IMG/VR virus record: IMGVR_UViG_3300005613_000038
Length of the DNA stretch: 64,000 nucleotides
Direction: 5' to 3' (one strand)
DNA from: an uncultured virus (IMG/VR IMGVR_UViG_3300005613_000038)
Lineage: Duplodnaviria > Heunggongvirae > Uroviricota > Caudoviricetes
The notes under the pieces: model-generated
Seen by the model: only the letters and a program-made list of their open reading frames with translations
What the model was told of the DNA's origin: nothing
The model's database searches: none
In this document: piece by piece, positions 15,737 through 45,274 of the stretch
Position numbering within the stretch: position 1 is the stretch's first letter
Layout of the letters: each line of letters opens with the position of its first letter
Made by a program: the position numbers and the translations under genes

Positions 15737-16321
15737 ATGAAACAAAATAAATTTACTTCAAATGATTATCAAATGTTTCATGAAACTAATTTATATCTTC
15801 CAACTAGAACGATATATTTTGGTGGTCAATGTTTTGATGAAGATGTTGTAACAAGTCAAACTGTTGCTCAATTAATAAAAAATCTTCATATTCTTGAACA
15901 TAGAGAAATCGCTCCAATTTCTATATTATTAAATACAATTGGTGGGTCTTGGGAATCTGGTATTGCTGTTTATGATGTAATTAAAAAATTAGCATCGCCT
16001 ATTACAATTATTGGGTTAGGGCAAGTATATTCTATGGGAAGTGTTATATTACAGTCGGCCAATAAAAGAGTTTTAACTGAAAACACATATATTATGATTC
16101 ATGATGGATCTGAAGGTTATGAAGGTGATCCAAAAATGATTGAACGATGGATGGAAGTTTCGAAAGCTGTTCGTCTAAAAATGTATGATATTTATTGGCA
16201 AAAAATGAAATTAAAAAATAAAAAATTAAGATTTAAAGATGTTGAAAAAATGTGTGCTGTTGACACAATTTATAATGCAGAAGAAGCAGTTAAACGAGGA
16301 TTAGCAGATGAAATCATGTAA
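15737..16321 (+). CDS. clpP: ClpP-like serine protease
   Basis: LNTIGG, YSMGS (Ser), IMIHD (His), DTIYNAEEAV..GLAD (Asp). Confidence 0.9.
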   Translation: MKQNKFTSNDYQMFHETNLYLPTRTIYFGGQCFDEDVVTSQTVAQLIKNLHILEHREIAPISILLNTIGGSWESGIAVYDVIKKLASPITIIGLGQVYSMGSVILQSANKRVLTENTYIMIHDGSEGYEGDPKMIERWMEVSKAVRLKMYDIYWQKMKLKNKKLRFKDVEKMCAVDTIYNAEEAVKRGLADEIM

Positions 16322-17786: not shown

Positions 17787-18413
17787 ATGGCGAATACCTT
17801 TTTTAGTGCGGATTACCACTTTGCACACACAAACATTTTAAAATATGATAATAGACCGTTTAAAGATATTGAAGAAATGAAAGATGTTATAATTAAAAAA
17901 CATAATGAAAGAGTAAAACAAGATGATATAATGTATTTTTTAGGTGATTTTGGATTTTGGGCGAGTAATAATCGAGCTTTTCGTGGAGAAGGGAAACCAT
18001 ATTCTCCCGATGATATTTTAAAACAAATGAATGGGAAACATTGGTTTTATATTAAAGGCAATCATGATAAAACATCAAATAAATTTAAATCAAAAATTGA
18101 ATCAAGTATTTTAAATCAAAATGGATTAAGAATTCAATTAATTCACGATCCAATGTATGCTAAAATAGATTATGATTTCACGCTTTGTGGGCATATTCAC
18201 AATTTATGGAAAGTTAAAGAATTATATTATTGTGGTGAAATTAGATTAATTATTAATGTTGGTTGTTGTGCATGGAATTATTATCCAGTGAAATTAGATG
18301 AATTACTTTCAATTTATTATCGTTGGAAAAATGAAAGAAGTAAAATTAAACGATGGGAAAAACCAGCAATTCTAAAAGAATTAAACAAAGATACACTTCA
18401 GAGAGAATTGTAA
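17787..18413 (+). CDS. calcineurin-like metallophosphoesterase
   Basis: DYHFAH, LGDF, GNHD, H, GHIH motifs. Confidence 0.9.
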   Translation: MANTFFSADYHFAHTNILKYDNRPFKDIEEMKDVIIKKHNERVKQDDIMYFLGDFGFWASNNRAFRGEGKPYSPDDILKQMNGKHWFYIKGNHDKTSNKFKSKIESSILNQNGLRIQLIHDPMYAKIDYDFTLCGHIHNLWKVKELYYCGEIRLIINVGCCAWNYYPVKLDELLSIYYRWKNERSKIKRWEKPAILKELNKDTLQREL

Positions 18414-18418
18414 TAATC

Positions 18419-18842
18419 ATGTATAATAAAAAATATTATCAAACTCACAAAAAAGAAAGCAAATTATATAGAAATAAACGTAAAAAATTAAAACCTTGGT
18501 TTGATTCTTATAATAATGCAAGACAAAGATGTAACAATACAAAACATTTAAAATATCATTGTTATGGTGGTCGAGGTATTAAATTTTTATTAACTGAAGA
18601 TGAATGTGTTAAGTTATGGGAAAGAGATAAAGGTTGGTTATTAAAACAACATAGTATTGATAGAAAAGATAATGATGGTCATTATGAATATAGTAATTGT
18701 CAATTTATTGAGATGAAAGAGAATATAAAAGTCTTCATCAAGCAGGCTCGTTTGTCAAAAGAACACCCCAGCTATTTATTTTGCTGTAATAAATAATACT
18801 CAATGTGCTGGTTTTAAATGGGAATATAAAAATGATAATTAA
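18419..18842 (+). pseudogene. HNH homing endonuclease with a disrupted NUMOD1 tail
   Basis: HNH part intact (RCNN..YGGRGI..SIDR.DNDG.Y..NCQFIE); the NUMOD1-like segment EYKSLHQAGSFVKRTP/AIYFAV..AGFKWEYK lies in other frames. Confidence 0.65.
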
Positions 18843-19251
18843 AGTATTTAGTGAACGCACAATTAAAAATTTTAAAACAGATAAAAACTATGCGATAATT
18901 TCTATTCAAGACCCATCTTGTGATTTTGTTAAATTATATAAACCAAAAAATTGTAAAGCTATTTTGAAATTTAAATTTTATGATTTGGATAAAAAAATTG
19001 GTCAAGAAAATTATGACAATTGGCTTTTTGAAAGTAAAGATGCAAAACATATATTAAATGCTATAAATTTATTGAAAGATAAAATTGACATTCTTTGTGT
19101 TCATTGTGTTGCAGGCGTATCAAGAAGTGCTGGAGTAGCTGGAGCATTATCTAAAATTTTAAATAATGATGATATGTATTACTTTAAAAATTACTGTCCA
19201 AACATGCTTGTATATAGAACAATATTAAAGGAGTATTATGAAGAAAAATAA
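18832..19251 (+). CDS. protein tyrosine / dual-specificity phosphatase
   Basis: HCVAGVSRS (CX5R) motif, upstream FYD loop, PN motif. Confidence 0.9.
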   Translation: MIIKVFSERTIKNFKTDKNYAIISIQDPSCDFVKLYKPKNCKAILKFKFYDLDKKIGQENYDNWLFESKDAKHILNAINLLKDKIDILCVHCVAGVSRSAGVAGALSKILNNDDMYYFKNYCPNMLVYRTILKEYYEEK

Positions 19252-21157
19252 TTTAGTAAAATCATATATTCTTGATTATTTAAAAAAGAAAGTTCCAAAT
19301 TTTCAGAAAAAAAGTAAGATGTTCACGTGTTTTAAATGTAAAAACTTATCTGCTAATATATTTCCACAAAATTCTCACTCAGTTCATTGTTTCTCGCCAA
19401 CATGCGGAAAATTAGGAGATGTATACGATATATGTAGAGAGTTAGAATTTGATGATAATAAAGATGTTGAAATTAAAGATATAGAAAATCATTTAATTAA
19501 AATGTTTTCTATTAAAACAAATAATTATGTAGATAATTTATTAGAAAAATATGCTAATTGGGGATGGGATTTAGTGCCTGTAAGTAAGAATGGAAAAGCG
19601 TCTAACATAGAATCAGAATGGCAGAAAAAGCATCATAAAGATGTACGAGAATGGCAAGAATGGTTAAAATCTGGTCTAAATATGGGAGTTAAAGGTGGAA
19701 CAATGAGTGATGTTTTAATTGTTGATTTGGACATAGTGCCATCTAAATTAAAAAAGAAAATTTATGAAGGAAAAGCATCAGAACAAGAAATAGAAAAAGC
19801 AAAACAAATAAAAGCTGAGAAATTAGAACTTATTAAAACATGGGATATTTTTGATTTTACCACAGTTCAACAATTCACCTTTGGTGGTGTTCATTTTTTT
19901 CACAAGAACGATGAAGAAATAAAGAAATGTGCGTTTGATTACGAAGGAATACATATTGATATTCAAAGTGATGGTGGACAAGCTGTAATTGAACCAAGTG
20001 TCGTAGGAGGTCAACAGAGAACGATTATAGGGGATGAAATTAAATTAGTTTCATCAAAGTTAAAACAATGGATTAATTTAAATAAAGTTTTAAATAAAGA
20101 AGAAAATAAAGTAGAAATTGTTGAAAATAATGAAGAAGGAATTATTAAAGGATTAGAAGGATGTTGTAATTCTACATTTGCTAAAGTTGGTGGTAAATTA
20201 AGAAAATTTTTACCTCAAAAAGAAACTGAAACAGTATTACATATAATTAATAATGATTTATTAGATGACCCAATGAAGTCAAAGGATATGCGTTCATTAT
20301 GTAATCAGATAAATAAATATATAATATTAGATGAAGATGTTTTATATCAAAATGTATTAGAATTTTTAATTAAACATGAAGAAGCATCAATGAGAGATTT
20401 AAAAGAATGTTTGGGAGTAGAATCTAGAGATTTAAAAGAAGTATTAGCTCGATTAATTAAAGATAATAAAGTGTTTAAACATAAATCATTATATAAAGCA
20501 ATAAATAAAGCAGAATGGAAAACAGAATTTATTCAAGAGTCAAAGGTGTTAGATTATGATATTCCATATTTTAATAATCATGCTGTTTTCCGTCGAGGGG
20601 ATATGATTTGTGTGGGTGCGGAGCCAGGCATTGGGAAGAGCCATATATCGTTAAATATTATTAGAAAATTAGTTGAAAATAATATAAATTCAAAAGGCGG
20701 AATTAGATATTTGTCATCTGAACCAGGAAATAGATTTGCAAAAATAGCTATGGAAATTGGATTAAAAGAAGGAGATTTTTATTTTTGTAATCATTATCAA
20801 CCAGAAAAAATAGAATTAGAAGATGATGCCGTAACAATTGTGGACTGGTTATTACCCGAAGATTTTAGTCAAACTGCCAATCTTTATAAAATATTTGCAA
20901 GACAGTTAGATAAACACGGTGGTGTATGTTTTATTTTTTCACAGTTAAAACCAGATAAACAATTTTATGCAGAGCAAATGGTTAAATTTTTTGCTTCATT
21001 TGCAGTAAAATATTTTTATACAGAAAAAAATGGTGTGAAAGATAATCAAAATACTTATTTTAAAACAGAAAAGATAAGAGAAAGTAAAACAAATCAACAG
21101 TATATAACTATACCCACTTATTTTGGTTCAGATAAACGATTGGAATTAAAGAAATGA
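19238..21157 (+). CDS. primase-helicase (Zn finger + Prim-Pol + P-loop)
   Basis: CFKC..HCF...CG Zn-binding region, IVDLD and GGVHF Prim-Pol motifs, GAEPGIGKS Walker A, IVDW Walker B. Confidence 0.85.
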   Translation: MKKNNLVKSYILDYLKKKVPNFQKKSKMFTCFKCKNLSANIFPQNSHSVHCFSPTCGKLGDVYDICRELEFDDNKDVEIKDIENHLIKMFSIKTNNYVDNLLEKYANWGWDLVPVSKNGKASNIESEWQKKHHKDVREWQEWLKSGLNMGVKGGTMSDVLIVDLDIVPSKLKKKIYEGKASEQEIEKAKQIKAEKLELIKTWDIFDFTTVQQFTFGGVHFFHKNDEEIKKCAFDYEGIHIDIQSDGGQAVIEPSVVGGQQRTIIGDEIKLVSSKLKQWINLNKVLNKEENKVEIVENNEEGIIKGLEGCCNSTFAKVGGKLRKFLPQKETETVLHIINNDLLDDPMKSKDMRSLCNQINKYIILDEDVLYQNVLEFLIKHEEASMRDLKECLGVESRDLKEVLARLIKDNKVFKHKSLYKAINKAEWKTEFIQESKVLDYDIPYFNNHAVFRRGDMICVGAEPGIGKSHISLNIIRKLVENNINSKGGIRYLSSEPGNRFAKIAMEIGLKEGDFYFCNHYQPEKIELEDDAVTIVDWLLPEDFSQTANLYKIFARQLDKHGGVCFIFSQLKPDKQFYAEQMVKFFASFAVKYFYTEKNGVKDNQNTYFKTEKIRESKTNQQYITIPTYFGSDKRLELKK

Positions 21158-23682: not shown

Positions 23683-24849
23683 ATGGAAAATGAAAGAAAG
23701 AAAAAACTTATAGAGACAATGAAGTCTTTTAACAAAGGTCAAAAAGATGAAATATTGTCCTTTGGAAATGAAGCTGAAGCTAAAGAATTAATTCCCACTG
23801 GCATTAAAACAATTGATAAATTTATCGGTGGTGGAACGAAGCGTGGAACATTTACTGTTGTTTACGGTGGACAAAGTGTAGGAAAATCTACATTAGTTCT
23901 TCAAACAATAGCAAATGCTCAAAAAAATGATTTAATTTGTTGCTATGTTGACTTAGAACATACTTTTGATAAAGAACGTGCTGTATCTTTAGGAATTAAT
24001 TTAGATGAATTAATTTTGGCCGAAAAATGTGCAAATGCTGAACAGGCTTTAGAAATTATTAGAACATTATGTAAACAAAAAGTTGTTGATTTAATTGTTG
24101 TAGATAGTGTTCAAGCTATGTCACCAAAAAATGAACAAGAAAATAAAGGTAAAGAAAGAGAATTAGCTTCTAAAGAAATTGCAGAATTAGCCAGAACATT
24201 GTCAAAGTTTTTTAGAGTAGTGTCACCAGATGTATTTAATGCACAAGCAAGTGTTATTATGATTGGTCAAGTTCGTATTGCAGGTATAGGTTCATTTTAT
24301 ACTCATGCAGATATGACGGGTGGCGAAGCCTTGAAGCATTGGGCATCAACAAGATGTTTTGTTAGAAAAGGGCAAACAAAAGATGCACCAGTTTCAAAAT
24401 TCAAAGAATATTTTGTTGACCCAGACGGTAAAGTTCGATATTCAACAAAAGATATTCAGATTGGATTTGATTCTGTTATCAAATTGGAGAAAACTAAATC
24501 TTCTAAATCAGCTAAAGAAGGACAAGATATTCATGTTCCTTTTCTTTATGATAAAGGATTTGTTGATGAAGTAATTATAGATGAAAATATTCCAATTAAA
24601 ATTGATGCAGAGAATGATGAAGAACAAAAGATAATGGAAGATTATTTGATAGAAAAAGGATTAATGGATAAAAATGGAAACACGGGTGCAATTATACCTC
24701 CTCAAGGTGGAACTGGAGAAACTAAATCGAGAACAATAAGAGCAGGTGGAGAAGGTTTATCAAATGGTAAAACTTTTGAAGATGTTAAAAATGCTGTTGA
24801 TAAGGTAAAGAAAAAAGGTAGAGGAAGACCAAGAAAAGGGAGTAAATAA
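23683..24849 (+). CDS. recA: RecA/UvsX recombinase with a C-terminal AT-hook-like tail
   Basis: IPTG..D, YGGQSVGKST, YVDLEH, VVDSV, IGQVR, TGGEALKH; tail KKKGRGRPRK. Confidence 0.92.
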   Translation: MENERKKKLIETMKSFNKGQKDEILSFGNEAEAKELIPTGIKTIDKFIGGGTKRGTFTVVYGGQSVGKSTLVLQTIANAQKNDLICCYVDLEHTFDKERAVSLGINLDELILAEKCANAEQALEIIRTLCKQKVVDLIVVDSVQAMSPKNEQENKGKERELASKEIAELARTLSKFFRVVSPDVFNAQASVIMIGQVRIAGIGSFYTHADMTGGEALKHWASTRCFVRKGQTKDAPVSKFKEYFVDPDGKVRYSTKDIQIGFDSVIKLEKTKSSKSAKEGQDIHVPFLYDKGFVDEVIIDENIPIKIDAENDEEQKIMEDYLIEKGLMDKNGNTGAIIPPQGGTGETKSRTIRAGGEGLSNGKTFEDVKNAVDKVKKKGRGRPRKGSK

Positions 24850-25257
24850 TGGGTGAGAAAACTATTTATGAATTAGAATTACATGAATATTTACAGTTAG
24901 AAGATATTCAAATTATGAGAGTTGCAGGTGGTTGGATTTATAGATATTGGGATTATGAAAAGAAGGATTATTATGCAGGTTCTACTTTTGTTCCTTATCA
25001 TAATGAGTTCGATACTAGAAAACCAGAAGCGACACCTGTACCTTTTGGAGATTAAAATGGAATATATATTAGTTAAAGATAATGATTGTCATTGGTATGT
25101 TATTCCAAATGATAGACGAAAACATTGGAGTGCATGGTTAGAATTAGATTCTGAGAATGAAAGAGCTTGGGATGTACCAGAATTTGCTGAAGAAGTAGGT
25201 GGAAGTCAAACTTTAGTTAAATTTAAAGAATATAGAATTGAATAAAGGAGAAAAACA

Positions 25258-25423
25258 ATGACAGTTAAAGAATTAAAAACTATGTTAGATGAATGTAAAG
25301 ATGAACAAGAAGTAATTTTAAAAAAGTGCAAGTGGAATTGAATGGAAAATATTAGCAGAAGATTTACTTTTATCTCCTATTAAGTATAAGAAAAAAGCTA
25401 AAATGTATTTAACAGTGAAATAA
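25258..25423 (+). pseudogene. small gene frameshifted at an A6 tract (25320-25325)
   Basis: AAGGAG RBS, MTVKELKTMLDEC..EVILK, then +1 frame SASGIEWK..MYLTVK*. Confidence 0.5.
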
Positions 25424-25619
25424 TATTCAATAAAAAGGAGAAATAAAATGGGATATTTATTATTTATTTTATTAGTTGTGGTGGTTAGCTTTATAGCTGG
25501 TATGTTTGTTCAGAAACGACAGAATATTCTATCATGAAAATTTGTATTAAATGTGACAAAGTAATTGAAGATGATTGTTGGGAATGTCCATATTGTGATT
25601 CAAAAATAATCAATGATAC

Positions 25620-25649
25620 TTGACAAAATATAAAACTATGTGTTATACT
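25620..25649 (+). promoter_or_regulatory. sigma70-type promoter with extended -10
   Basis: TTGACAaaatataaaactatgtgtTATACT, 18-nt spacer. Confidence 0.85.
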
Positions 25650-25657
25650 TTAATATA

Positions 25658-26161
25658 ATGAAATATCCAAAATTACACAATTTTAACGAAATGTATACAC
25701 CACCAGAAGCATTAGATTATATAATGCCTTTTTTAAACAAAAATCTTGTTTATTGGGAAGCTTGTTATGGAGAAGGTCATTTAGCAAAGGTATTAAGAAA
25801 AAATCAATTTAATGTAATTGGAAATAAATCAATAGATTGTTTAATTGATCAACCTAATGAATATTGGGATATTTGGATTACTAATCCACCGTTTAATGGG
25901 AATAAAAAATTTATAAAAAGAGCTATTGAATTAAAAAAGCCGTTTATTTTTCTTTTAAGATTAGAACATTTAGGTGGTGTTGAAGCGTTAAGATTATTAA
26001 AAAATTTAGATTTTAAAATAATTATACCAGAAAAAAGAATTAATTATATCACACCAAAAATGATACAAGGTAAAAAAGTTGGAGGTTCTCCTTTTCATTC
26101 TATATGGTTAACTTATTTAATTGATTTACCAAAACAAATTAATTATATTAAAAAAGGATAA
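25658..26161 (+). CDS. small amino (N6-adenine-type) DNA methyltransferase
   Basis: YTP, WEACYGEG (SAM binding), ITNPPF catalytic motif. Confidence 0.8.
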   Translation: MKYPKLHNFNEMYTPPEALDYIMPFLNKNLVYWEACYGEGHLAKVLRKNQFNVIGNKSIDCLIDQPNEYWDIWITNPPFNGNKKFIKRAIELKKPFIFLLRLEHLGGVEALRLLKNLDFKIIIPEKRINYITPKMIQGKKVGGSPFHSIWLTYLIDLPKQINYIKKG

Positions 26162-26164
26162 ATA

Positions 26165-26719
26165 ATGACTTGTATAATTGGGTATATTGATAAAAATAAA
26201 AAATTGTGGATGGGTGCTGATAGTGTGGGTGCCACAGATAGTATGAAAACAAGAAGAAAAGACACCAAACTTTTTAGAAATAAAGATTTTTTAATAGGTT
26301 ATACTTCTTCATTTCGTATGGGTCAACTTCTACGATTTAAATGGAATCCTCCTAAACAGCATAATAAATCTGATTATAAATATATGTGTACTGATGTTAT
26401 TGATTCAATACGAATTTGTTTAAAAGAAAATGGTTATGCTAAAATTCAGAATAATGAAGAAGAAATTGGTACATTTTTAATTGGATATAAAAATAAATTA
26501 TATAAAATTGAAGAAGATTTACAAGTTGAAGAATGTATTGATAATTTTAATGCTTGTGGTTCTGGTGTTTATTTTGCAATAGGAGCTTTAAATATTTTAT
26601 CAAAATTAAATTTATCTGCATTAGAAATTTGTAAAAAAACATTAGAAACAGCATCAAAATTTAATCCTTTTGTCGGTAAACCGTTTGTTATTAAAAAATA
26701 TTCTAAAGAAAGAAAATAA
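26165..26719 (+). CDS. Ntn-hydrolase (HslV/proteasome-beta-like) peptidase
   Basis: N-terminal MTC (Thr nucleophile), GADS, K, ACGSG motifs. Confidence 0.75.
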   Translation: MTCIIGYIDKNKKLWMGADSVGATDSMKTRRKDTKLFRNKDFLIGYTSSFRMGQLLRFKWNPPKQHNKSDYKYMCTDVIDSIRICLKENGYAKIQNNEEEIGTFLIGYKNKLYKIEEDLQVEECIDNFNACGSGVYFAIGALNILSKLNLSALEICKKTLETASKFNPFVGKPFVIKKYSKERK

Positions 26720-26720
26720 C

Positions 26721-27221
26721 ATGTTATCAAAACAAGTTAAAAAATTATATGAAGATGGAAAAATTAACGAATTATATAAATATGCTCAACCATATTTTAA
26801 TAAAATAGATGAGTTAGCTGATAAATTTTTAGGTGATTTACTATCAGAATATGATTTAAAATATGCACAGCAAGTGCTTAATGGGTGTTCGACTAAATTA
26901 AATGTTATTGCTGGCTGTTTGGAAGCACTATTAGTTGAATACGAAAACAATTATATTATTAAAGAAGAATCTAAAATTGAGAAATTAAGAATTCAAGATC
27001 AAAATAGTTGTAAAGCAATGGCAAGAAGCAAGGTATCAGATTTAAGAAGATATGCTTCTGATTTTACAAGATATGTTTATTCAGCACAAAATGCCGTTAT
27101 AACAGTTCAAAGTTTATTGAAGAGACAAACAATTGAAAAAGGAAATAAGGGAGTAGATTTTACAGGAGATACCAGTCAGGTTGAAGAACAAGAACAAACA
27201 AAAAATGAATCAGGATGGTAA
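26721..27221 (+). CDS. helical hypothetical protein, possibly a UvsY-like mediator
   Basis: all-helical pattern near RecA and ligase; the function is inference. Confidence 0.3.
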   Translation: MLSKQVKKLYEDGKINELYKYAQPYFNKIDELADKFLGDLLSEYDLKYAQQVLNGCSTKLNVIAGCLEALLVEYENNYIIKEESKIEKLRIQDQNSCKAMARSKVSDLRRYASDFTRYVYSAQNAVITVQSLLKRQTIEKGNKGVDFTGDTSQVEEQEQTKNESGW

Positions 27222-27278
27222 AAATGAAAGTTTGTCATAAATGCAATAAAAAGAAATCAAATATTTAAGGAAACATAA

Positions 27279-28226
27279 ATGAAAAGTTATAAACCACTTT
27301 TGGCGCCAAATCAAGAAATAAATCTTAGTGAAATTAGTTATCCTATTCTAGCTTCTACTAAATTGGATGGGATAAGAGTTATATTTTATAAAGGACAAAT
27401 TCTTACTCGTTCACTTAAAAAACTACCTAATAAACAACTTAACGTAAAATTCGAACCACTTAGACAATACTCAGAAGATTATAATCTCATCATAGATGGA
27501 GAAATTTATTCACATGAATTAACTTTTCAAGAAATTATAAGTTATGTGATGACTCAGGATTTTGAAGATAAAAAATCAATTAAAAAATATGGAGAAGTTA
27601 AACAAATACCAGAGCATTTAAAATTTTATTGTTTTGATGTTATTAGAAATGATGAATTTGATAAAGATTTTTCATTAAGATATGCTGATGATGTTTTAAG
27701 AATTGGAAATGAATTTCCTAGATTAGCAATTAGTGTTTTTCATAAACAAGTTAAAAATGAACAAGAAGTTAATGAGTATTTTGAAAGCGTGTTAGAAGAA
27801 GGATATGAAGGATTAATTCTTAGGTCATTTAGTGGTCGATACAAGTGTGGTAGAGGAACTGTTAAAGAAGGAATTATCTACAAGGTGAAAAAATTTGTTG
27901 ATTTTGATGGTAAAATTATAGACGTTATACAGTCCACCGAAGTAAATGAAGATGCAGAAAAAAAGACAAACGAGCTTGGCAGAAGTGTCACTTCACATAA
28001 AAAAGATGACCGTCACTTAATTGAAAAAGCTTCAACATTTCTTGTTAATTATGAAGATAAAGAATTAAAAGTTACATTGGCTATGACAGATGAAGAAAAA
28101 GAAGAAGTTTGGAATAATAAAGAATCATACATAGGAAAATGGATAACGTATAAAGGAATGTTAGTTGGAGCAAAAGAGGTACCAAGACATCCTGTAATGA
28201 TTCGATTTAGAGAAAGTAAAGATTAA
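27279..28226 (+). CDS. ATP-dependent DNA ligase
   Basis: KLDGIR, IDGEI, FDV, EGLILR, YKVK, PRHP motifs. Confidence 0.93.
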   Translation: MKSYKPLLAPNQEINLSEISYPILASTKLDGIRVIFYKGQILTRSLKKLPNKQLNVKFEPLRQYSEDYNLIIDGEIYSHELTFQEIISYVMTQDFEDKKSIKKYGEVKQIPEHLKFYCFDVIRNDEFDKDFSLRYADDVLRIGNEFPRLAISVFHKQVKNEQEVNEYFESVLEEGYEGLILRSFSGRYKCGRGTVKEGIIYKVKKFVDFDGKIIDVIQSTEVNEDAEKKTNELGRSVTSHKKDDRHLIEKASTFLVNYEDKELKVTLAMTDEEKEEVWNNKESYIGKWITYKGMLVGAKEVPRHPVMIRFRESKD

Positions 28227-28753
28227 TGTCACTAAAAGATAAAGTAAAACGAATCGAATATCATAGAGAATATTATAAATATAATCTTGATAAATGGGAA
28301 AAACAAAAAATAGATAAAAAGAAATTTCCTTGGAAATATGTTTTAAAAGGCATAAAAACTCGTTGTAATAATTCAAAGTGTAAACGATATAAAGATTACG
28401 GTGGTAGAGGCATTAAATGTCTTATAACTCAAGAAGAAGTTAAGAAACTTTGGTTTAGAGATAAAGCTTATCTCTTAAAAAGACCTAGTATAGATAGAGA
28501 AGATAATGACGGTCATTATAAGTATTCTAATTGTAGATTTATTGAATTAAAAGAGAATTTAATTAAAGGAAATAAAGAAACTCATATTAAAACAATATTA
28601 CAATTTGATTTACACGAGAATTTCTTAAAAGAATGGAGAAGTATCGGTGATGCATCAAAATTTTATAATTGTCATATTTCTGCAATTTCAAATGCTTTAC
28701 GTTTAAAAACAAAAACATCCTGTGGATTTATTTGGAGATATCAAAATGCTTAA
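28226..28753 (+). CDS. HNH-type homing endonuclease with NUMOD1-like HTH
   Basis: TRCNN..DYGGRGI..SIDREDNDGHY..NCRFIE; ILQFDL..EWRS..GFIWRY. Confidence 0.85.
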   Translation: MSLKDKVKRIEYHREYYKYNLDKWEKQKIDKKKFPWKYVLKGIKTRCNNSKCKRYKDYGGRGIKCLITQEEVKKLWFRDKAYLLKRPSIDREDNDGHYKYSNCRFIELKENLIKGNKETHIKTILQFDLHENFLKEWRSIGDASKFYNCHISAISNALRLKTKTSCGFIWRYQNA

Positions 28754-31700
28754 TTCTGAAGTTAAAAATAATTTGGAAAAAATGAAATCTTCGGCATTGA
28801 TTTTAGATATAGAAACTTCGGCATTTTTTTCAAATAATCAAGAGATAAACATAAGAACTAACTTTGATGAATACGTTACTCATGCCAAAGTAAAATGGTT
28901 CGGTGCGTATAGCTATAAAGATAACAGAATCTATTTGTTAGATGCTCAGAAAGATGCTCAGAAAGTTTTAGATTTATGCAATTCACACGACATTTTAATT
29001 GGTTTTAATAGTTCGGAATTTGACATACCTATTCTAAAAAATAATGGATATCTTCAAGAAGGTAAATATTATACTGAAGTTGATTGTATGGTCGTGTTAG
29101 GAAAACCAACTGGTAAAACAAAAGATGGTTATCCTTATAAGGATAGAGGTACATTGATGAATTATAAATTTAAAAGAAATTCATTAAAATGTATTGCTGA
29201 AACAATGGGATTAGAAACACAAAAAGGTGATATTGATTATAAACTTTTTCATAAAGATGTATGGACCGCATCAGAAGAACAAGAGATTAAAAAATATTTA
29301 AATAATGATATTATGGCAACAAAACAAATGTTTGATAAACTATGGAATTTTTGGATGCCATTTGCAGAATTTTTAGATGAAAAAAATATATATAATTTAT
29401 CGTGGATTAAAAATTCAATTGCTTCTCTTACATATAAATCTGCTTGTAAAGTATATGATGTGGAACCGACTTATTCAGATAAGAAGACAAAAACTGAAGA
29501 AATGGGTGGTCGAGTTATTGAACCGAAATATGAAGAAATGAGAAATGTTTGGTACATTGACTATACATCATTATATCCACATATATTTTCCATGTTCAAC
29601 CTTTTTTCAGAAGTAGATAAAGATTTATTTCCTGATGCATGGCATGGGAATAAATTATTTAAAGTCAAAGGATATTATGATATTTCAAAATGGAATGTGT
29701 TATGTGAAGAAATTTCGAAAAGATTAAAAGAAAGAATTCATTTAAAGAAAATTGATAAAGATAGCCCGATGATATATACACTTAAAATCTGGCTAAATAG
29801 TTTATACGGTGCAAGTCGATCGTCGGTATTTGAAAAAATACATAGTAAAAATTGTGGTTGGGACTGTTGTCTTTTAGGTCAACAAATTCATGAATTAACC
29901 GAAGATATGATGGAAACATTTGGTTTCGAAACATTATATGGCGATACCGACGGGTTTATGATGAAAGCTAAAGATGAAAAATATAATAATAAAAAATATG
30001 TTAAAGAATGTTTAGCACAAATTATTGATATTATAAAAGATAATGTTCCTTTTCCAGTAGACACATTTAACATTGACATTGAAAATTATATTTATTATAT
30101 CATGTTTCCATTTTCTGAACAACCGATAATTGATGTTGAAACTGGTAAAAAGAAAAAAATAAAAAATAGATTAGTTAAAGAACGTAAGGGGAGAAAAAAG
30201 AATTATTTGTTTTTATATAAAGAAAATGATGAATTAAAAACGAAAATTGTTGGTCTTCCAATTAAAAAAGATAATGCTACACCTTTGGGAATGAAGATAT
30301 TTAATGAAGTATTAGAAAAACAGATTATTGAAAATAAAAGAGCAAAATTTTCTAAAGAACATATTGATAATATTATAAATGAGTATTTAAAGAATAAAGA
30401 GATTATGAAATTGTTAGCTGTTGAATATCGAGTAAAACGATTTGATACATACAAAAAAGAGAGTCAAATACAGGCTCAGATAAGCAAGGGTTACTTTGAT
30501 GGTCGGGAAGGTATAATCAGTCTAATAAAGAATAAAAGTGTCGGTAAAGCAGGCTTAGGCACTAAATACTGTACTATAGAAGAAGCAATATCAAACAATT
30601 TAACAGTAAAAGAACTTGATTTAGATAAAATTTATAATGAATTAGAACCGTTTATTTTACATGAATTTTGGGTCAAGAATACAGAAACCAATGATGAATA
30701 TTTAATAGATAATGATGCTTATGAAGCAAGTAAAGATTTTTTAGAAAAAATAGATAAAATTAAAAAGTTCGATAAAGTATTGAAAACAAAGAAGATAAAG
30801 AAAATAGATGATTCAATCAATCTATCAGATAATTTAGATGAAAAATTAACTATATCAGAATTACAAAAAAAATATAATTTTAATAAAGATGAACATAAAT
30901 TTTCGTATATATGGAAATTAAAAGATGCAATTTTTACTAAAGATAAAGGAAAAGTTTTTTCTTGTTTTGCCTGTGGTGGTGGTTCTACAATGGGATATAA
31001 ATTAGCAGGATATGATGTAATTGGTTGTAATGAAATAGATAAAAAAATGTTTGATGTGTATTGTGAAAATCATCATCCAAAATATGCATATAATGAAGAT
31101 ATACGAATATTTAAAAATCGAAATGATTTACCAGAAGAATTATATAATTTAGATATATTAGATGGTTCGCCACCGTGTTCATCTTTTTCTATTGCTGGTA
31201 ATAGAGAAAAAGATTGGGGTAAAAAGAAAAAATTTCAAGAAGGACAAGAAGAGCAAGTATTAGATACATTATTTTTTGATTTTATAGATTTAGCAAATAA
31301 ACTTCAACCAAAAATGGTTATTGCCGAAAATGTTAAGGGTCTTATGATGGGCAAAGCTAAAGATTATATTCAAAAAATTTATGAAGAATTAGATAAAGCA
31401 GGATATTATACAAAACATTATTTATTAAATTCTAAAAATATGGGTGTGCCACAAAGAAGAGAACGAGTATTTTTTATATCTATTAGAAAAGATTTAAATA
31501 ATAAATTAGAAGAATTAAATTTAAAATTTAATGAAAAAGAAATTCCAATTAAATATTTTATTAAAGGTATTAAAAAAAGAAAAACACAAAATTATTTACC
31601 TAATAGATATGGTGATATAATGTTAGATGTTAATAGACCTTGTAATACAATGGTTTCAATAAATAGATATTGGTTGGATGAAAATACTTTAATCGATGAT

Positions 31701-31856
31701 ATGTCAAAAACATTAATTGGTTCGTTTCCTTTAGATTATAAATTAATACATAAAAATTTACATCGGTTAATAGGAATGAGTGTTCCACCATTGATGATAA
31801 GTCAAATATCTTCAATAGTTTATGACAAAATGTTATCAAAGCTTGACAAACAGTGA
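28746..31856 (+). CDS. family B DNA polymerase fused to a C-terminal C5-cytosine DNA methyltransferase
   Basis: PolB: DIET, FNSSEFD, YLNND, DYTSLYP, KIWLNSLYG, YGDTDG. MTase: FACGGG, NEID, GSPPCSSFS, ENVKG, PQRRERVF, SFP, GMSVPP. One uninterrupted frame. Confidence 0.93.
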   Translation: MLNSEVKNNLEKMKSSALILDIETSAFFSNNQEINIRTNFDEYVTHAKVKWFGAYSYKDNRIYLLDAQKDAQKVLDLCNSHDILIGFNSSEFDIPILKNNGYLQEGKYYTEVDCMVVLGKPTGKTKDGYPYKDRGTLMNYKFKRNSLKCIAETMGLETQKGDIDYKLFHKDVWTASEEQEIKKYLNNDIMATKQMFDKLWNFWMPFAEFLDEKNIYNLSWIKNSIASLTYKSACKVYDVEPTYSDKKTKTEEMGGRVIEPKYEEMRNVWYIDYTSLYPHIFSMFNLFSEVDKDLFPDAWHGNKLFKVKGYYDISKWNVLCEEISKRLKERIHLKKIDKDSPMIYTLKIWLNSLYGASRSSVFEKIHSKNCGWDCCLLGQQIHELTEDMMETFGFETLYGDTDGFMMKAKDEKYNNKKYVKECLAQIIDIIKDNVPFPVDTFNIDIENYIYYIMFPFSEQPIIDVETGKKKKIKNRLVKERKGRKKNYLFLYKENDELKTKIVGLPIKKDNATPLGMKIFNEVLEKQIIENKRAKFSKEHIDNIINEYLKNKEIMKLLAVEYRVKRFDTYKKESQIQAQISKGYFDGREGIISLIKNKSVGKAGLGTKYCTIEEAISNNLTVKELDLDKIYNELEPFILHEFWVKNTETNDEYLIDNDAYEASKDFLEKIDKIKKFDKVLKTKKIKKIDDSINLSDNLDEKLTISELQKKYNFNKDEHKFSYIWKLKDAIFTKDKGKVFSCFACGGGSTMGYKLAGYDVIGCNEIDKKMFDVYCENHHPKYAYNEDIRIFKNRNDLPEELYNLDILDGSPPCSSFSIAGNREKDWGKKKKFQEGQEEQVLDTLFFDFIDLANKLQPKMVIAENVKGLMMGKAKDYIQKIYEELDKAGYYTKHYLLNSKNMGVPQRRERVFFISIRKDLNNKLEELNLKFNEKEIPIKYFIKGIKKRKTQNYLPNRYGDIMLDVNRPCNTMVSINRYWLDENTLIDDMSKTLIGSFPLDYKLIHKNLHRLIGMSVPPLMISQISSIVYDKMLSKLDKQ

Positions 31857-33606: not shown

Positions 33607-34017
33607 ATGATTGAAAATGTGTTAAAATTAATTGTGTCTGTATTAATTGGTTTTATTCTTGGTAGAGAAAGAAAAAAACATGCTAAAGAAGCTGGTGGCA
33701 GTCGAACATTGGCTATTGTTTCTTTAGCATCATGTTTACTTGCTATATTAACATTAGAAATTCAGAAATTAAATCCGACAGTTCATAATTTTACGAGATT
33801 GCTGGCTTATGGAATTAGCGGAATTTCATTTTTGGGAGCAGGGATAATTTGGAAAAAAAATGGAGAGATTGAAGGACTTACAACAGCTTCAACATTATGG
33901 ATTTTATTACCGATTAATTATTGTATTGGCTTGGGTTTCTGGGTCTATGGTTTTGTTACAACTATTTTAACTTTTATATTATTAGAATCTAAATATTTTC
34001 TAACTCATGAAAAATAA
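33607..34017 (+). CDS. MgtC/SapB family membrane protein
   Basis: G.ER..AG.RT..V; GISFLGAGII; EGLTTASTLW. Confidence 0.9.
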   Translation: MIENVLKLIVSVLIGFILGRERKKHAKEAGGSRTLAIVSLASCLLAILTLEIQKLNPTVHNFTRLLAYGISGISFLGAGIIWKKNGEIEGLTTASTLWILLPINYCIGLGFWVYGFVTTILTFILLESKYFLTHEK

Positions 34018-34663
34018 AATTATTTATTTATATCAAAATAAGAAGTGGTCAGCCAATAAAATTGGCAAATATTATAACTGTAGTCATAAAAAAATTATAA
34101 AAATATTAAAAGAAAATAATATTATTATTCGAAATAGAGCAGAGGCGAATATTTATACAAAAAATATAATCGGCAAAACATTTGGAAGATGGATTGTGTT
34201 GAAATATGACAAAAAATCAAAATATATATGTCAATGTAGATGCGGAGTGAAAAAATCAGTTAGTCGAAACTCTTTAATAAATAAAAAAAGTAAATCGTGT
34301 GGGTGTTGGAATTCAGATAAAGCAAGTCGACAATCTCGTTCTTGGAAATTTTTGAAGAAGAGTTTAAGAAGACCTATTTCATTAGTTTATGAAAGTTATA
34401 AACGACATGCAAAAATTAGAAAACAAGTTTTTTATTTATCAAAAGAAGAATTTGGAACATTAATAATTCAGAAATGTTATTATTGTGGAAAGATAGATAA
34501 GCGAAATTTTAATGGGATAGATAGAGTCGATAATAAAAAAGGATATACATTACAAAATTGCGTTGCATGTTGTAATTATTGTAATCACGCAAAATGGAAT
34601 TTATCAAAAACAATTTTTTTAAATCATATAAATCGAATAGCAAATTTTCAAAGGAGAAAATAA
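34007..34663 (+). CDS. HNH homing endonuclease
   Basis: GKTFGRWIV..CQCRCG..SCGC; CYYCG..NGIDRVDNKKGY..NCVACC..CN..K. Confidence 0.85.
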   Translation: MKNKIIYLYQNKKWSANKIGKYYNCSHKKIIKILKENNIIIRNRAEANIYTKNIIGKTFGRWIVLKYDKKSKYICQCRCGVKKSVSRNSLINKKSKSCGCWNSDKASRQSRSWKFLKKSLRRPISLVYESYKRHAKIRKQVFYLSKEEFGTLIIQKCYYCGKIDKRNFNGIDRVDNKKGYTLQNCVACCNYCNHAKWNLSKTIFLNHINRIANFQRRK

Positions 34664-35697
34664 TGGCTAAATTTTGGACAGATGAAAAAATAGATATTCT
34701 TATTACATATTTAAGAAATGGTGTTTCGTCAAGAGAAATAGCCAAAAAATTAAATACTACTATCGATGCGGTTGGTTCTGCTATTCGAAGATATAATTTA
34801 GCAGAACATGTTGTGGCTAAAAGTGCTACAATTAAATTTCTTCAAAATATTGAACTTGATAATTTAAATGATAAAAATTTCAAAAAATTAAAAAAAGAAG
34901 CAAAATTAAATTGGAAAATTTCAAAATCTAAAATTAAAAAAGATAAAAAGAAAAAATTTGAAATAGCTTTGTTTTTCCCCGATGCTCATATTCCTCATCA
35001 CAATCAATCAGTATGTAAATCAATAATAAAATTAATGAATGATGTTAAATTTGATAAATTTATTATTGGTGGAGATTTTATGGATTTAGGCTGTGTGAGT
35101 CATTGGAATAAAAATAGACATAAAACTTTAGAAATGAAAAGATTAAAATCTGATTATATTATTGGAAATTCTTTATTAGATGAGTTTGATAAAAAATTGC
35201 CCAAAAATTGTGATAAATATTTCTGTAAAGGTAATCATGAAAAATGGGCTGATGATTTATTAGAAGAAATGCCAGCACTCGAAGGTTTAGTCGAACCTGA
35301 ATATATGTTAAAATTAAAAGAAAGAAATTATAAAGTTTCGCAATATAATGAATTAATTAAATTTGGAAGACTTTATGTTACTCATGGTATTTACGCTGGA
35401 GTAAATCCAATTAAAAAACATATTGATGAACTCAAGGTAAATATACTTTTTTTTCATACGCATACATTAGGAATGAGATTATCATCTAGTCCAGCTCGAA
35501 ATATTGCTTTTGCTGGATATAATGCAGGTTGTGCTTGTGATTTAGCTCCTGAATATTTAAAAAATAGACCTAATTCATGGACTCATGGTTTTGCTATTGG
35601 ATATTTTTATCCTAATGGATTTTTTGATGTGCAATTAATTAGGATTATTCAAGGAAAATTCGTTTTTGCGAATAAAGTATATGATGGAAATAAATAA
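34663..35697 (+). CDS. metallophosphoesterase with an N-terminal HTH
   Basis: WTDEKI..REIAKKL HTH; DAH, GDFMD, GNHE, THG, HTH metal ligands. Confidence 0.8.
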   Translation: MAKFWTDEKIDILITYLRNGVSSREIAKKLNTTIDAVGSAIRRYNLAEHVVAKSATIKFLQNIELDNLNDKNFKKLKKEAKLNWKISKSKIKKDKKKKFEIALFFPDAHIPHHNQSVCKSIIKLMNDVKFDKFIIGGDFMDLGCVSHWNKNRHKTLEMKRLKSDYIIGNSLLDEFDKKLPKNCDKYFCKGNHEKWADDLLEEMPALEGLVEPEYMLKLKERNYKVSQYNELIKFGRLYVTHGIYAGVNPIKKHIDELKVNILFFHTHTLGMRLSSSPARNIAFAGYNAGCACDLAPEYLKNRPNSWTHGFAIGYFYPNGFFDVQLIRIIQGKFVFANKVYDGNK

Positions 35698-36089: not shown

Positions 36090-36278
36090 ATGCCAACATA
36101 TAACTTTTCTTGTGAAAATTGTGGATATAAACAACAAAAATTAGTTTCAATTTTATATTCAAAAAAATCTAAATGTCCTAAATGTCAAAAATATTCATTG
36201 ATTAGATTAATAGGAAAAGGTTGTGGATTTAAATTAAATGGTAAAGATTTTTATAAAAAAGGATGGAATATAAAATGA
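36090..36278 (+). CDS. FmdB-like zinc-ribbon protein
   Basis: MPTY.F.CENCG..CPKC..L.RLI..GF.L.G..FY. Confidence 0.8.
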   Translation: MPTYNFSCENCGYKQQKLVSILYSKKSKCPKCQKYSLIRLIGKGCGFKLNGKDFYKKGWNIK

Positions 36279-36484
36279 TTGAAATTAAACCAAAAGATAA
36301 TTCAGATGAAGCTTTTACAAAAGCATTAAGTGTTTTTAAAAAAGTGTGTAATAAGGATGGTTTTTTAAAAGAAATAAGAGATAGACGTTATTACAAAAAA
36401 CCAGGTGAGAAAAAAAGAGAAAGTATTAGAAAAGCAAAACGAGAACAACTAAAACATAATAAAAAAGAAAATAAATTATATTAA
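36275..36484 (+). CDS. rpsU: ribosomal protein bS21
   Basis: F.KAL..FKK.C.K.G..KE...RRYY.KP...KR signature. Confidence 0.85.
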   Translation: MIEIKPKDNSDEAFTKALSVFKKVCNKDGFLKEIRDRRYYKKPGEKKRESIRKAKREQLKHNKKENKLY

Positions 36485-41088: not shown

Positions 41089-41717
41089 ACAGTATTTTAT
41101 CAAAGTAAAACAATCAAAAACACAAAAAGTTGAATTGAAAAAAATGCAAAAATACTATGATTATCTTCGTGCAGGTGCTACATTTATTCAATTTATTAGA
41201 CAAGATTTAGTCAAAGGTCAATCTCAAATGAATCGTCATCAAAGACGAAAAATGCAAAAAACTCTTGTAAAGGGAGAATTAACCGATGAATTAATTCAGC
41301 ATTATTCAAAAGAAGTTGATAGAATTTTACAAGAAATAAACACAAGGTTAAATTCTTCAAAATCAATTGATGGTGCAAAAATGTACAATCAATTAAAGAA
41401 GAAGGAGAAATAAATAATGAAACATAAATATCAAATAAATGAAATTGTCTATGTTGTAGAAGAATATAGAGTGATTAAAAGTATTGTTGATTCTATTACA
41501 ATTGTTAAAGATATTAAAGGTGAACAATTAAGATATATTGTTTATCCATATAATCAAAAAAATAAAAACCCAAAAAAGAGACAATATGTTGAAGCATATT
41601 TAGTTTCAAATTTAGAAGTAGCAAGACAAAGTGCTTTAGCTAATTGGAGAACAATAACTCAACAAGTTGAAAAAGATTTACTTAATTTAAAAGATGAAGA
41701 TTTTGAACCGAGTGAAA

Positions 41718-42206
41718 ATGAAATCGCAACCAAATAGAAATTATAAAAGTAATGATAGAGTGATGACACCATTATCATTATGTAAACGAATAATTGATTA
41801 TTTTAATCCAGATGGTTTTATTTTAGAACCATGTAAAGGAACTGGAAATTTTTTAAAATATCTACCAAAAGAACGAACATTTTATTGTGAACAAGATGAA
41901 GGTAAACCATTTGAAGACTTTACCAAAAAAGTTAATTGGGTAATTACTAACCCACCTTGGTCTAAAATGAGATTATTTTTAAATTTATCATTTAAATGTG
42001 CTAATCATGTTGTTTTTGTAATGACAATTAATCATATTTTTACAAAAGCAAGAATTCGTGATATGAAAGAAAATAATTTTAATCTTAAAGAAATATTGTA
42101 TATTGATACCCCTAAAGAATTTCCACCGATGGGATTTCAATTAGGTGTTGTTCATTATGAACGAAATTATAAAGGTTCAACTATTATAAAAAATTTACCA
42201 GTTTAA
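41718..42206 (+). CDS. small amino (N6-adenine-type) DNA methyltransferase
   Basis: VMTP, LEPCKGTGNF, ITNPPW. Confidence 0.8.
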   Translation: MKSQPNRNYKSNDRVMTPLSLCKRIIDYFNPDGFILEPCKGTGNFLKYLPKERTFYCEQDEGKPFEDFTKKVNWVITNPPWSKMRLFLNLSFKCANHVVFVMTINHIFTKARIRDMKENNFNLKEILYIDTPKEFPPMGFQLGVVHYERNYKGSTIIKNLPV

Positions 42207-44053: not shown

Positions 44054-45274
44054 ATGAAAAAAATTGAAATTAATAGTAAATTATATGAAAAAGTGTATAA
44101 AGAAATTCCTGATTATGGAAGAGCAGAATTTAATCATTGCCCAGGAATAAGATTATATCCACATTATAAACAATATCTTTCGGGAAAAATTATGGATTTA
44201 GGTTCTGGAACGGGTGAAACAGTTGAATTTTTTCGAAATAAAAAATTTGAAGCATATGGTTTAGATTGGATAAAACCAAAAAATATATTTTGTAAAAAAG
44301 CAAATATAACATTAAAAAATAAATTAGATAGATATGATGTAGTTACAAGTTTTGACACTATTGAACATTTAACCAATGCTCAAGTAAAAGCTTTATTTAC
44401 AAACATGACGGTGTGTGAAACACAAATTTTTACAATTGCGAATACTCCATCTATAGTTACTTTAAAAAATGGCGATAAAATTGATTTACATATTAATAAA
44501 AAATCATTTGATGTGTGGAGAGGTATTATTTTTGACTATTTTAATATTATTAATGAAATTTCCATTAAAGATTATCAACGATTATATATATGTAAAAAGA
44601 AAAAATCTACTGAAGAATATAATGAATATATAGCTGAACATTTAAGAAAAAACGGATATAAAGTAAAAAAATGGATAAAAGGATTACAACAAATTAATCT
44701 TAATTATTGGTATTATCCAGTTACCGATTTTGTTTATGATGAATCTTATGTAGAAAAATACAAAGAATATGCTGAAACAACAAGAGGCGAACAAATTTTA
44801 AATGCTCGATTAAATATATTAAAATCATATAAAAATCTTTTAGATATTGGAATTGGATCTGGTCATTTAATTGATAATAAAAAATATGCTAAAGGATATG
44901 ATGTTAATCCCATTGTTATTGAAAAATTAAAAAAAGAAAATAGATGGTGTGACCCATACAAAGAATCTTTAAAACACTTTGATGTAATTTCATTTTTTGA
45001 CAGTTTTGAACATATTCAATATCCAGAAAAAATATTAAATAGAATAACAAATCAAACAATTGTTATTGCCATTCCAATTTTTAATAATTATGAAAATCTT
45101 ATTCAATCTAAACATTTTCGACCAGATGAACATTTTCATTATTTTACTTTTTTAGGTTTTTTAAATTATATGAGAAATCATGGATTTATATGTGAAAATA
45201 TTTCAGATATTGAAATTCAATTAGGAAGAGAATCAATTTATACATTTGTTTTTAAACGAGGAAAAACAGAATGA
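44054..45274 (+). CDS. tandem double class I SAM methyltransferase
   Basis: two SAM motifs (MDLGSGTG, LDIGIGSG), each followed by a D..EH motif. Confidence 0.8.
   Translation: MKKIEINSKLYEKVYKEIPDYGRAEFNHCPGIRLYPHYKQYLSGKIMDLGSGTGETVEFFRNKKFEAYGLDWIKPKNIFCKKANITLKNKLDRYDVVTSFDTIEHLTNAQVKALFTNMTVCETQIFTIANTPSIVTLKNGDKIDLHINKKSFDVWRGIIFDYFNIINEISIKDYQRLYICKKKKSTEEYNEYIAEHLRKNGYKVKKWIKGLQQINLNYWYYPVTDFVYDESYVEKYKEYAETTRGEQILNARLNILKSYKNLLDIGIGSGHLIDNKKYAKGYDVNPIVIEKLKKENRWCDPYKESLKHFDVISFFDSFEHIQYPEKILNRITNQTIVIAIPIFNNYENLIQSKHFRPDEHFHYFTFLGFLNYMRNHGFICENISDIEIQLGRESIYTFVFKRGKTE

Follow-up and report, generated by a model that had tools for sequence, protein, structure and literature searches.

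We describe a phage gene in which a family-B DNA polymerase (PolB) and a C5-cytosine DNA methyltransferase (C5-MTase) are joined in a single open reading frame (ORF). The gene lies on the plus strand, at positions 28746..31856, of a 64,000-nucleotide stretch of DNA from an uncultivated tailed phage (IMG/VR record IMGVR_UViG_3300005613_000038; Caudoviricetes). This stretch, a contig with 25% G+C, is referred to throughout as the window. The fusion ORF (P0001) comprises 1036 codons plus a stop, and its product would have an estimated mass of ~121 kDa. Our preferred reading, to which we give about an even chance, is that the MTase is tethered in cis to the replicative polymerase and would methylate duplex DNA as the polymerase makes it. 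Polymerases that carry accessory DNA enzymes are known, as is methylation linked to replication; what appears to be new here is the covalent union of a PolB with a C5-MTase.

One open frame spans a polymerase and a methyltransferase

Two start codons are available for the fusion gene, a GTG at 28722, which gives 1044 open codons, and the ATG at 28746, which gives 1036. Homologues start at the ATG and not at the upstream GTG. A preliminary description of this DNA, made from the letters of the sequence, had reported a PolB and a complete C5-MTase in one frame, and we indeed found a single open frame in which both domains are matched by Pfam (PF00136 and PF00145), PHROGs and NCBIfam. It had placed the end of the polymerase core near 30657, and the conserved core end was found at aa 637, nt 30656. 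Frame analysis also agrees with its statement that the region between the two domains has no stop and no in-frame ATG: from aa 638 to aa 748 there is neither an in-frame ATG nor a GTG, and the stretch offers one canonical start only, a TTG at aa 679 (30780), within the PolB tail. As the only candidate for internal initiation, this TTG is without a convincing ribosome-binding site by eye. The next in-frame ATG is at aa 749, behind motif I of the MTase, and the other two frames across the region are stop-rich and closed. When the interval 30657-30990 was shuffled, none of 20,000 shuffles stayed open, and for the 33-codon joint the proportion that did was 1.3%. The open frame across 30657-30990 is beyond chance.

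The N-terminal half, the polymerase core (aa 1-637; 28746..30656), contains the 3'-5' exonuclease, palm, fingers and thumb. Its Pfam match is weak, PF00136 covering aa 245-286 with E = 1.8e-5 and a score of 24.1 bits (cut-off 23), and the NCBIfam Pol II models also match it weakly. PHROGs recognised a polymerase exonuclease at aa 6-202 (phrog_403) and a DNA polymerase at aa 144-577, in addition to DNA methyltransferase families in the same ORF; a match to phrog_116 begins at aa 567, inside the thumb. The preliminary description had read motifs Exo I-III and A-C from the translation, and an alignment of 26 PolBs of the family bears it out, in that all of the invariant columns are kept in the window protein. 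Among the exonuclease motifs, D21/E23 (Exo I), N88/F92/D93 (Exo II) and Y184/D188 (Exo III) are kept; the same is true of D272 and S275-P278 in motif A, K347 and L353-G355 in motif B, and D400/D402 in motif C. A model made with AlphaFold2 from the PolB family alignment has predicted local distance difference test (pLDDT) values of 80-98 over aa 1-640. The top Foldseek matches to this model were E. coli Pol II and archaeal PolBs (E = 1e-21 over ~700 columns), at a target-normalised template-modelling (TM) score of ~0.5, and PDB sequence matches to this half reach E = 1e-9. Judged by its motifs and modelled fold, the N-terminal half is a complete family-B polymerase, with a predicted polymerase activity.

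The PolB family in question is large, uncharacterised and essentially viral. Of 8000 candidates scored, 412 matched at E <= 0.001, and nearly all of the 120 matches listed are 590-750 residues long, or longer from inteins. When 185,579 species genomes were scanned with the PolB alignment, we recovered only two loci, both on metagenome-assembled genome contigs labelled archaeal, and it is on this account that we consider the family to be essentially viral; the two loci give no clue to the host.

In this family, the conserved core end (aa 632-637) is followed by a variable, modular tail. Among 58 metagenome loci that include both the core end and a stop, the tail has 20 residues or fewer in 22, 21-100 residues in 34 and more than 300 in two. 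The modules comprise a mini-module of ~30 residues, a second helical module, lysine-rich stretches, AT-hook-like, RGRP-containing ends and D-W-D ends; two small modules recur in varied combinations among the tails of P0002-P0120. The variable tail of the window protein corresponds to aa ~638-697 (~60 residues). It begins with the optional mini-module (aa ~640-668; 30663..30749), a small beta-beta-alpha unit whose strands (640-645 and 651-655) and helix (656-661) were modelled with a pLDDT of ~70-80, and which is common to the unfused polymerases P0004, P0007, P0012 and P0105 and to a fusion of PolB with a Dam MTase, P0045, described below. The lysine-rich stretch that follows (to aa ~697) is common to P0002, P0005, P0007, P0012 and P0056. 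The residues that belong to neither parent number ~15 (aa ~698-711). The lysine-rich stretch and this non-homologous joint, which together span 30759..30878, are predicted to form a flexible tether. Two fold models were made, one from the PolB alignment and one from alignment A3, in which both halves were placed correctly. Both halves fold confidently, and in both models pLDDT is below 50 for aa 672-704 and 710-731, as would be expected if aa 672-731 were flexible. The "charged linker of about 80 codons" of the preliminary description is, however, not a novel linker, since ~60 residues are PolB tail modules, ~25 are the N-terminal segment of the MTase, and ~15 are junction.

The C-terminal half (aa ~712-1036; 30879..31853) is matched by PF00145 at aa 736-944 (E = 5e-44, profile positions 2-194) and by TIGR00675 (E = 4e-36). 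The ordered MTase motifs that had been picked out at the outset are real by comparison with solved enzymes, as motifs I, IV, VI, VIII and X align to those of CmoX, M.HaeIII and M.HhaI. They include the catalytic Cys811 of motif IV (codon 31176..31178), the counterpart in the alignment of CmoX Cys98 and of the catalytic residue in M.HaeIII, as well as E861-V863 (motif VI), Q903-R907 (motif VIII) and G1010-P1015 (motif X). In the model from alignment A3, aa 732-1036 have a pLDDT of 84-98, and target-normalised TM scores in Foldseek were 0.70-0.75 for M.HhaI, 0.71 for 8yf3 and 0.71 for M.HaeIII (1dct_A). The modelled fold is that of a two-domain C5-MTase with a target-recognition domain, and the enzyme is probably active.

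Standalone relatives of this half are found on four IMG/VR contigs (L004-L007; 55-67% identical) and in Flavobacterium, Cellulophaga and Rhodobacteraceae phages (48-60% identical). They resemble the window MTase (48-67% identity overall) in having both the N-terminal segment and a Met in motif X; they differ from it in being separate genes with their own start Met. In 4/4 of L004-L007 the start Met aligns to aa 712-713, where the window is without a start codon, and it precedes by a few residues the conserved N-terminal segment, which is ~25 residues in the window protein. At the other end, the fusion protein stops 3 residues past the ends of the standalone MTases. We conclude from these alignments that the MTase half corresponds to an entire free-standing phage MTase, complete but for its start Met, whose N-terminus is joined to the end of the polymerase. 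Its codon usage correlates with that of nine other window ORFs at r = 0.94 (r = 0.97 for the PolB half). In the 86 window ORFs scanned, Pfam recognises no other DNA MTase domain. Two paralogous ORFs at 25640-26158 and 41694-42203 (173 and 170 aa), without a Pfam match, match the middle part (~200-376 of 458) of PHROG 799, which is labelled DNA methyltransferase; they may represent an MTase-associated domain rather than an enzyme.

A proposed model for methylation during DNA synthesis

Phage DNA methylation is usually seen as the work of a free enzyme that acts after replication. In our preferred reading, a free-standing phage MTase gene would have lain directly after polB, and loss of the polB stop and of the MTase's own start codon would have created the fusion. 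The thumb and C-terminus of family-B polymerases lie where the finished duplex exits. A tether of ~60-90 residues would hold the MTase at this duplex-exit face, and thus keep it at a high local concentration on freshly made duplex. The MTase would also be made 1:1 with the polymerase. Both activities would reside in the fusion, with S-adenosylmethionine (SAM) as the donor and methylation kinetically coupled to synthesis. The progeny phage DNA would be methylated during synthesis, and its exposure to host restriction would be shorter, to the benefit of the phage. Replication-coupled methylation had already been suggested in the preliminary description. The architecture given there is correct, and the coupling is an inference; the Dam fusions and adjoining MTase genes described below count in its favour, and the singleton nature of the fusion and its unfused relatives count against it.

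Methyltransferases fused to, and adjoining, polymerases of the family

A Dam MTase of the D12 class (PF02086) is found at the C-terminus of six PolBs of the family (P0011, P0045, P0216, P0217, P0218 and P0219), two of which were met again as contigs L097 (3471-7574) and L103 (3492-6575). As in the window, the MTase is C-terminal, follows tail modules and is in a single frame with a PolB of the same family. Unlike the window protein, these fusions have an N6-adenine MTase, and the arrangement is seen in six proteins, compared with once for the C5-MTase of the window. With P0045 as the reference, the identity of the Dam domains is 49-82%, and with such divergence the PolB-Dam architecture appears to be one that persists; two of the six are on a very distant PolB branch. 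In P0011 and P0218 the Dam domain is followed by a PolB-type terminal peptide, as if it had been inserted ahead of that peptide, whereas the window protein has no such peptide after its MTase. Some PolB-Dam proteins also carry inteins, though P0216 and P0217 have none, and for one of the six the source gives no other name than Dam methyltransferase. Our literature searches, whose coverage lacks most subscription journals, found no paper on PolB-Dam fusions and none on any fusion of a DNA polymerase with a DNA methyltransferase, in line with the preliminary description, whose author knew of no characterised PolB-Dcm fusion; the phage methylase passages in PMC7824862 likewise mention no polymerase-MTase fusion.

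MTase genes also abut polB without being fused to it. This is the case in 5/20 distinct IMG/VR loci (the duplicate L023 was dropped). The MTase gene is upstream of polB in four of them, as a C5-MTase in L009, L011 and L016 and as an N6/N4-MTase in L022; in L014 an unfused polB is followed by a C5-MTase gene, and stop and start overlap. We considered L014 as the unfused ancestor type and rejected it, as its MTase is unrelated to that of the window (E = 0.2), and it serves as an analogue only. A second, metagenome set comprises 80 loci, and some contigs are in both collections (L010/L112, L019/L046). Here, 2/61 loci with a complete polB 3' end are the Dam fusions L097 and L103, an N6/N4-MTase abuts downstream in 3/52 loci with at least 300 nt of downstream sequence, a C5-MTase abuts upstream in 1/63 loci with upstream sequence, and three further loci have an MTase within two genes of polB. 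On these raw counts, enrichment of MTases beside polB is suggestive only. For the closest standalone MTases (L004-L007 and the phage relatives), no PolB of this family was present within the flanks examined.

Several side observations were made at these loci. The C5-MTase gene upstream of polB is split into two ORFs in L009:1-1475, L016:4965-6410 and L109:250-1392, with an HNH endonuclease ORF between or over the halves in L009 and L016; the cause could be a homing or intron-like insertion, or the enzyme itself could be a split one. In L010:8200-9558 (= L112:6670-8058), an intein-bearing polB is followed by genes for a TET-associated glycosyltransferase and a Mom-family protein, so that other DNA-modification genes are also found at the 3' side of polB. 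P0152 (77 member sequences) is a C5-MTase of the same clade fused to CHC2 zinc-finger and Toprim primase domains, and P0357 is a family-B polymerase with an N-terminal uracil-DNA glycosylase (UDG) domain. P0152 and P0357 point the same way as the recurrence of PolB-MTase associations.

UDG also provides a published parallel. PMC13697223 reports phage family-A polymerases (SP15-like YerA41, phiLo) fused to an active UDG, and its authors propose these fusions as platforms for further activities. As in the window, a phage replicative polymerase covalently carries a DNA-processing enzyme. In contrast, the polymerase is of family A rather than B. The UDG works ahead of synthesis, on the template, and the C-terminal MTase of the window would be behind it; in addition, the UDG fusions are characterised structurally and biochemically, whereas the window fusion is a prediction from sequence. 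A second parallel, from PMC8734342, is the ranavirus C5-MTase, which is found on nascent DNA and interacts with the viral DNA polymerase. As in our proposal, a C5-MTase would be brought to new DNA via the replication machinery.

A broader reading, which we offer tentatively, is that the C-terminus of this PolB family, at the duplex-exit face, is a docking site for enzymes that mark DNA, at which at least two unrelated MTase classes were captured independently, each giving a single polypeptide for co-replicative methylation that would not need a clamp. In addition, the donor used by the Met-type clade to which the window MTase belongs (see below) may not be plain SAM.

Is the fusion a neutral merger?

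The main rival to our preferred reading is that adjacent polB and MTase genes merged recently and neutrally, such that the two domains work independently, the union confers no kinetic advantage, and the fused form is short-lived. We regard this as doubtful, and as the alternative that has to be taken most seriously. The following observations weigh against coupled methylation, and most of them are what a neutral merger would lead one to expect. The exact PolB-C5 fusion appears to be a singleton among the proteins searched. A search with the MTase half for fusions, covering proteins of 569-1813 residues, yielded 96 long proteins that carry this MTase family, and PF00136 was present in just one of them, the window's own. 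This was the outcome of the search for shared domain architecture that the preliminary description had called for. Exhaustive HMMER searching of 1.84 billion cluster representatives found none above the level of PolB alone (top score 760 bits); the cluster that contains the query has a different protein as its representative, and fused forms may hide inside clusters with unfused representatives. The closest PolBs (P0002 and L038, 78-79% identical) are unfused. With full support, the window PolB has P0002 as its sister (78% identity, or 82% when the tree columns are compared), and L038, of the P0002 contig type, has a gene for an ABC-type ATPase after polB instead of an MTase. On the PolB tree (124 sequences, FastTree, local support only), the Dam fusions need 5 state changes and stand beside unfused PolBs (P0011 and P0004, 89%; P0045 and P0056, 91%; P0216 and P0119, 69%). 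From these changes and neighbours it would seem that the MTase module is easily gained or lost, which fits weak selection as well as it does repeated advantage. Abutting MTases are few among the metagenome loci (4 loci). Two further points are in keeping with a merger of no consequence: the tail region behaves as a hot spot at which modules are exchanged, since cores that are nearly identical bear different tails (see below), and an overlapping pair of polB and MTase genes exists in L014, so that one small change can fuse them.

Against a neutral merger, a second and unrelated MTase class is fused at the same position, in proteins whose Dam domains have diverged to 49-82% identity and which include very distant PolB branches. 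In addition, the MTase half is fully adapted to the codon usage of the phage, and the catalytic motifs of both halves are all intact.

Integrity of the joint

Another possibility, which we consider improbable, is that the fusion is an artefact of assembly or sequencing, either because a PolB core was joined to the tail and MTase of another variant, or because a stop was lost by error. Ten sequencing runs were listed, each with no more than 0.07 of the sampled words and with no RNA run among them. Among the contigs listed for runs X1, X2, X3 and X5 over 30200-31400, none bridges 30886-30951, which contains the joint; the X5 pieces on 30951-31039 are 90-95% alike and come from other MTases. These reads therefore speak neither for nor against the joint. 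The exact 60-nt junction word had no match in IMG/VR. The same phage is represented by another contig, L039, which agrees with the window at every position of 25246-30544 (5,299 nt, 0 mismatches) and ends inside polB, 111 nt before the core end. Other runs yielded contigs that have 2 differences from the window in the final ~200 nt of the core and then diverge exactly at 30655, after aa 637. In one variant joint, 117 nt are replaced by 45 others before the sequence rejoins at the lysine-rich stretch, an exchange of precisely the mini-module part, and the sequence at one unjoined variant end resembles the tail found in the unfused P0002. The polB 3' end thus looks like a population-level recombination hot spot (30544-30773; runs X1, X2 and X5). 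Because near-identical PolB cores branch after aa 637 into other tails, the joint lies in a population-variable region, and it rests on one assembly; like the points gathered above, this counts against our preferred reading.

These observations, together with a run of eight A residues at 30865-30872 within the tether stretch, are what the artefact has in its favour. However, a mis-join at 30655 would not make the fusion, since the sequence downstream of that point already opens with tail modules of the PolB family and continues in frame into the MTase. Homology to PolB tails can be followed to ~aa 697, and ~15 codons further on, at aa 712-713, homology to the MTases begins without a change of frame; with no start codon between them and the other frames closed, no single indel can split the fusion into two genes. 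The idea that an indel in the A8 run gave rise to the fusion was rejected for the same reason, as no canonical MTase start becomes available; according to the frame analysis, an error there would yield a truncated polymerase and a start-less MTase, the next ATG (aa 749) being behind motif I. Lastly, an error that turned a stop into a sense codon would not be enough, as the start Met would have to be lost too.

What does the methyltransferase transfer?

The preliminary description had called the domain "Dcm-type". The assignment as a C5-MTase stands, with the caveat that the nearest solved homologue is a carboxymethyltransferase whose defining Arg is not kept. The best PDB match is SpCmoX of Synechococcus phage S-B43 (8yf3; E = 1.4e-42, compared with 1.8e-21 for M.HaeIII), which is also ranked first by Foldseek. 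As described in PMC12783734, SpCmoX transfers a carboxymethyl group from carboxy-S-adenosylmethionine (Cx-SAM) to cytosine C5. There, CmoX candidates are defined by a four-residue catalytic-loop motif (S95-C98) plus Arg350, which replaces Asn304 of M.HhaI and contacts the carboxyl group, and most contigs with a candidate also encode the Cx-SAM synthase CmoA (PMC12783734).

The window MTase keeps the CmoX catalytic-loop motif identically. Motif X is present (G1010-P1015), but at the cofactor-pocket position occupied by Asn304 in M.HhaI and Arg350 in CmoX it has Met1011 (codon 31776..31778). Among 213 proteins tabulated, 110 relatives have a recognisable motif IV, and the loop motif occurs in 106 of these 110. 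At the motif-X position, 61 of the 110 have the Met form, 13 have Arg and 4 have Asn; 24 are without a recognisable motif X. No match to CmoA was found by Pfam among 85 window ORFs, the only ORF with a generic methyltransferase fold (44054-45271) has no CmoA match in NCBIfam, and Pfam found no AMP-forming ligase among the window ORFs. SpCmoX also differs from the window enzyme in being standalone. Membership of CmoX was rejected on the replacement of Arg350 by Met1011 and on the failure to find CmoA in the window, and the domain is best placed in a large, Met-type sister clade of CmoX.

It is highly improbable, in our view, that the domain moves a carboxymethyl or similar group to cytosine C5, as a handle for hypermodification. 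Such a role would suit a protein whose closest solved relative, by both sequence and fold, is SpCmoX, which shares with SpCmoX the first feature by which the paper defines the group, the catalytic-loop motif, and in which the cofactor-contact residue is neither Asn nor Arg but the Met found in 61/110 relatives. On the other hand, the Arg350 required by the definition in the paper is Met1011 here, and the window has neither CmoA nor an AMP-forming ligase, with the proviso that the phage genome may extend past the window. Since the defining Arg is Met and there is no CmoA in the window, plain methylation is more likely than carboxymethylation, as far as chemistry can be read from sequence.

Genome context

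The fusion gene is part of a replication and recombination block on the plus strand, which also includes genes for a Prim-Pol (19238-21154), a bacterial-type RecA (23683-24846), an ATP-dependent DNA ligase (27279..28226; PF01068, PF14743), a 5'-3' exonuclease and SbcCD-like proteins. The tail module is on the minus strand and includes the tape-measure protein (53502-56177). The ligase flanks PolB in many relatives. In the window, an HNH homing-type endonuclease gene (28226..28753, plus strand; phrog_3377, E = 5e-14) lies between the ligase and the fusion gene and overlaps the start of the latter; it is absent from between ligase and PolB in an 82%-identical relative (L040). The window has four HNH genes (9445-9984, 18353-18793, 28226-28753 and 34007-34660), three of which belong to one PHROG family, and the genes at 9445-9984 and 18353-18793 are paralogues of the one at 28226-28753. 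The best match of the latter is to a homing-type family, with a weaker match to a family labelled restriction endonuclease, and nothing ties it to the MTase.

A bacterial host is suggested by a homologue of bacterial ribosomal protein S21 (36263-36481; PF01165, E = 1e-12), a peptidoglycan hydrolase gene and the bacterial-type RecA. Elsewhere in the window, the N-terminal part of a metallophosphoesterase (34594-35694) weakly matches the family of the cell-cycle regulator GcrA (E = 4e-5, short of the curated cut-off), and ClpP-like, HslV-like, MgtC-family and M50 peptidase genes are found at 15737-16318, 26165-26716, 33607-34014 and 46375-46998. Genes for MgtC and for trypsin-like peptidases are again present close to polB in the relatives L019 and L103.

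No sliding clamp was recognised in the window by Pfam, or by PHROGs, which covered 44 of the 85 other ORFs. We think it very improbable that the appended domain is mainly a grip on double-strand DNA that raises processivity, with methylation secondary or lost: the apparent lack of a clamp and the AT-hook-like, RGRP-containing or lysine-rich ends found at the same position in relatives would accord with such a grip, but the catalytic and cofactor-binding motifs of the MTase are all intact, its tail-less MTase relatives are ordinary enzymes, and there is no sign of relaxed constraint. In eukaryotes, DNMT1 is coupled to replication through contacts with PCNA. The window differs from this clamp-tethered arrangement, in that no clamp was recognised and the protein ends within those 3 residues of the standalone MTases, and any coupling here would be covalent. 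The ranavirus MTase and DNMT1-PCNA depend on protein-protein contacts, in eukaryotic viruses or cells, whereas in this phage the link is a peptide bond.

Implications

Coupling of methylation to synthesis in the window protein is directly testable, by comparison of one purified protein with its two halves. Enzymes that copy and methylate could be tools for writing methylation during DNA synthesis, and the Met-type sister clade of CmoX is a separate target for cofactor discovery. If our preferred reading is true, a covalent polymerase-MTase would be the simplest replication-coupled marking device, and the Dam fusions in the same polymerase family suggest that it may be a general way in which phages shorten the window during which their DNA is unprotected.

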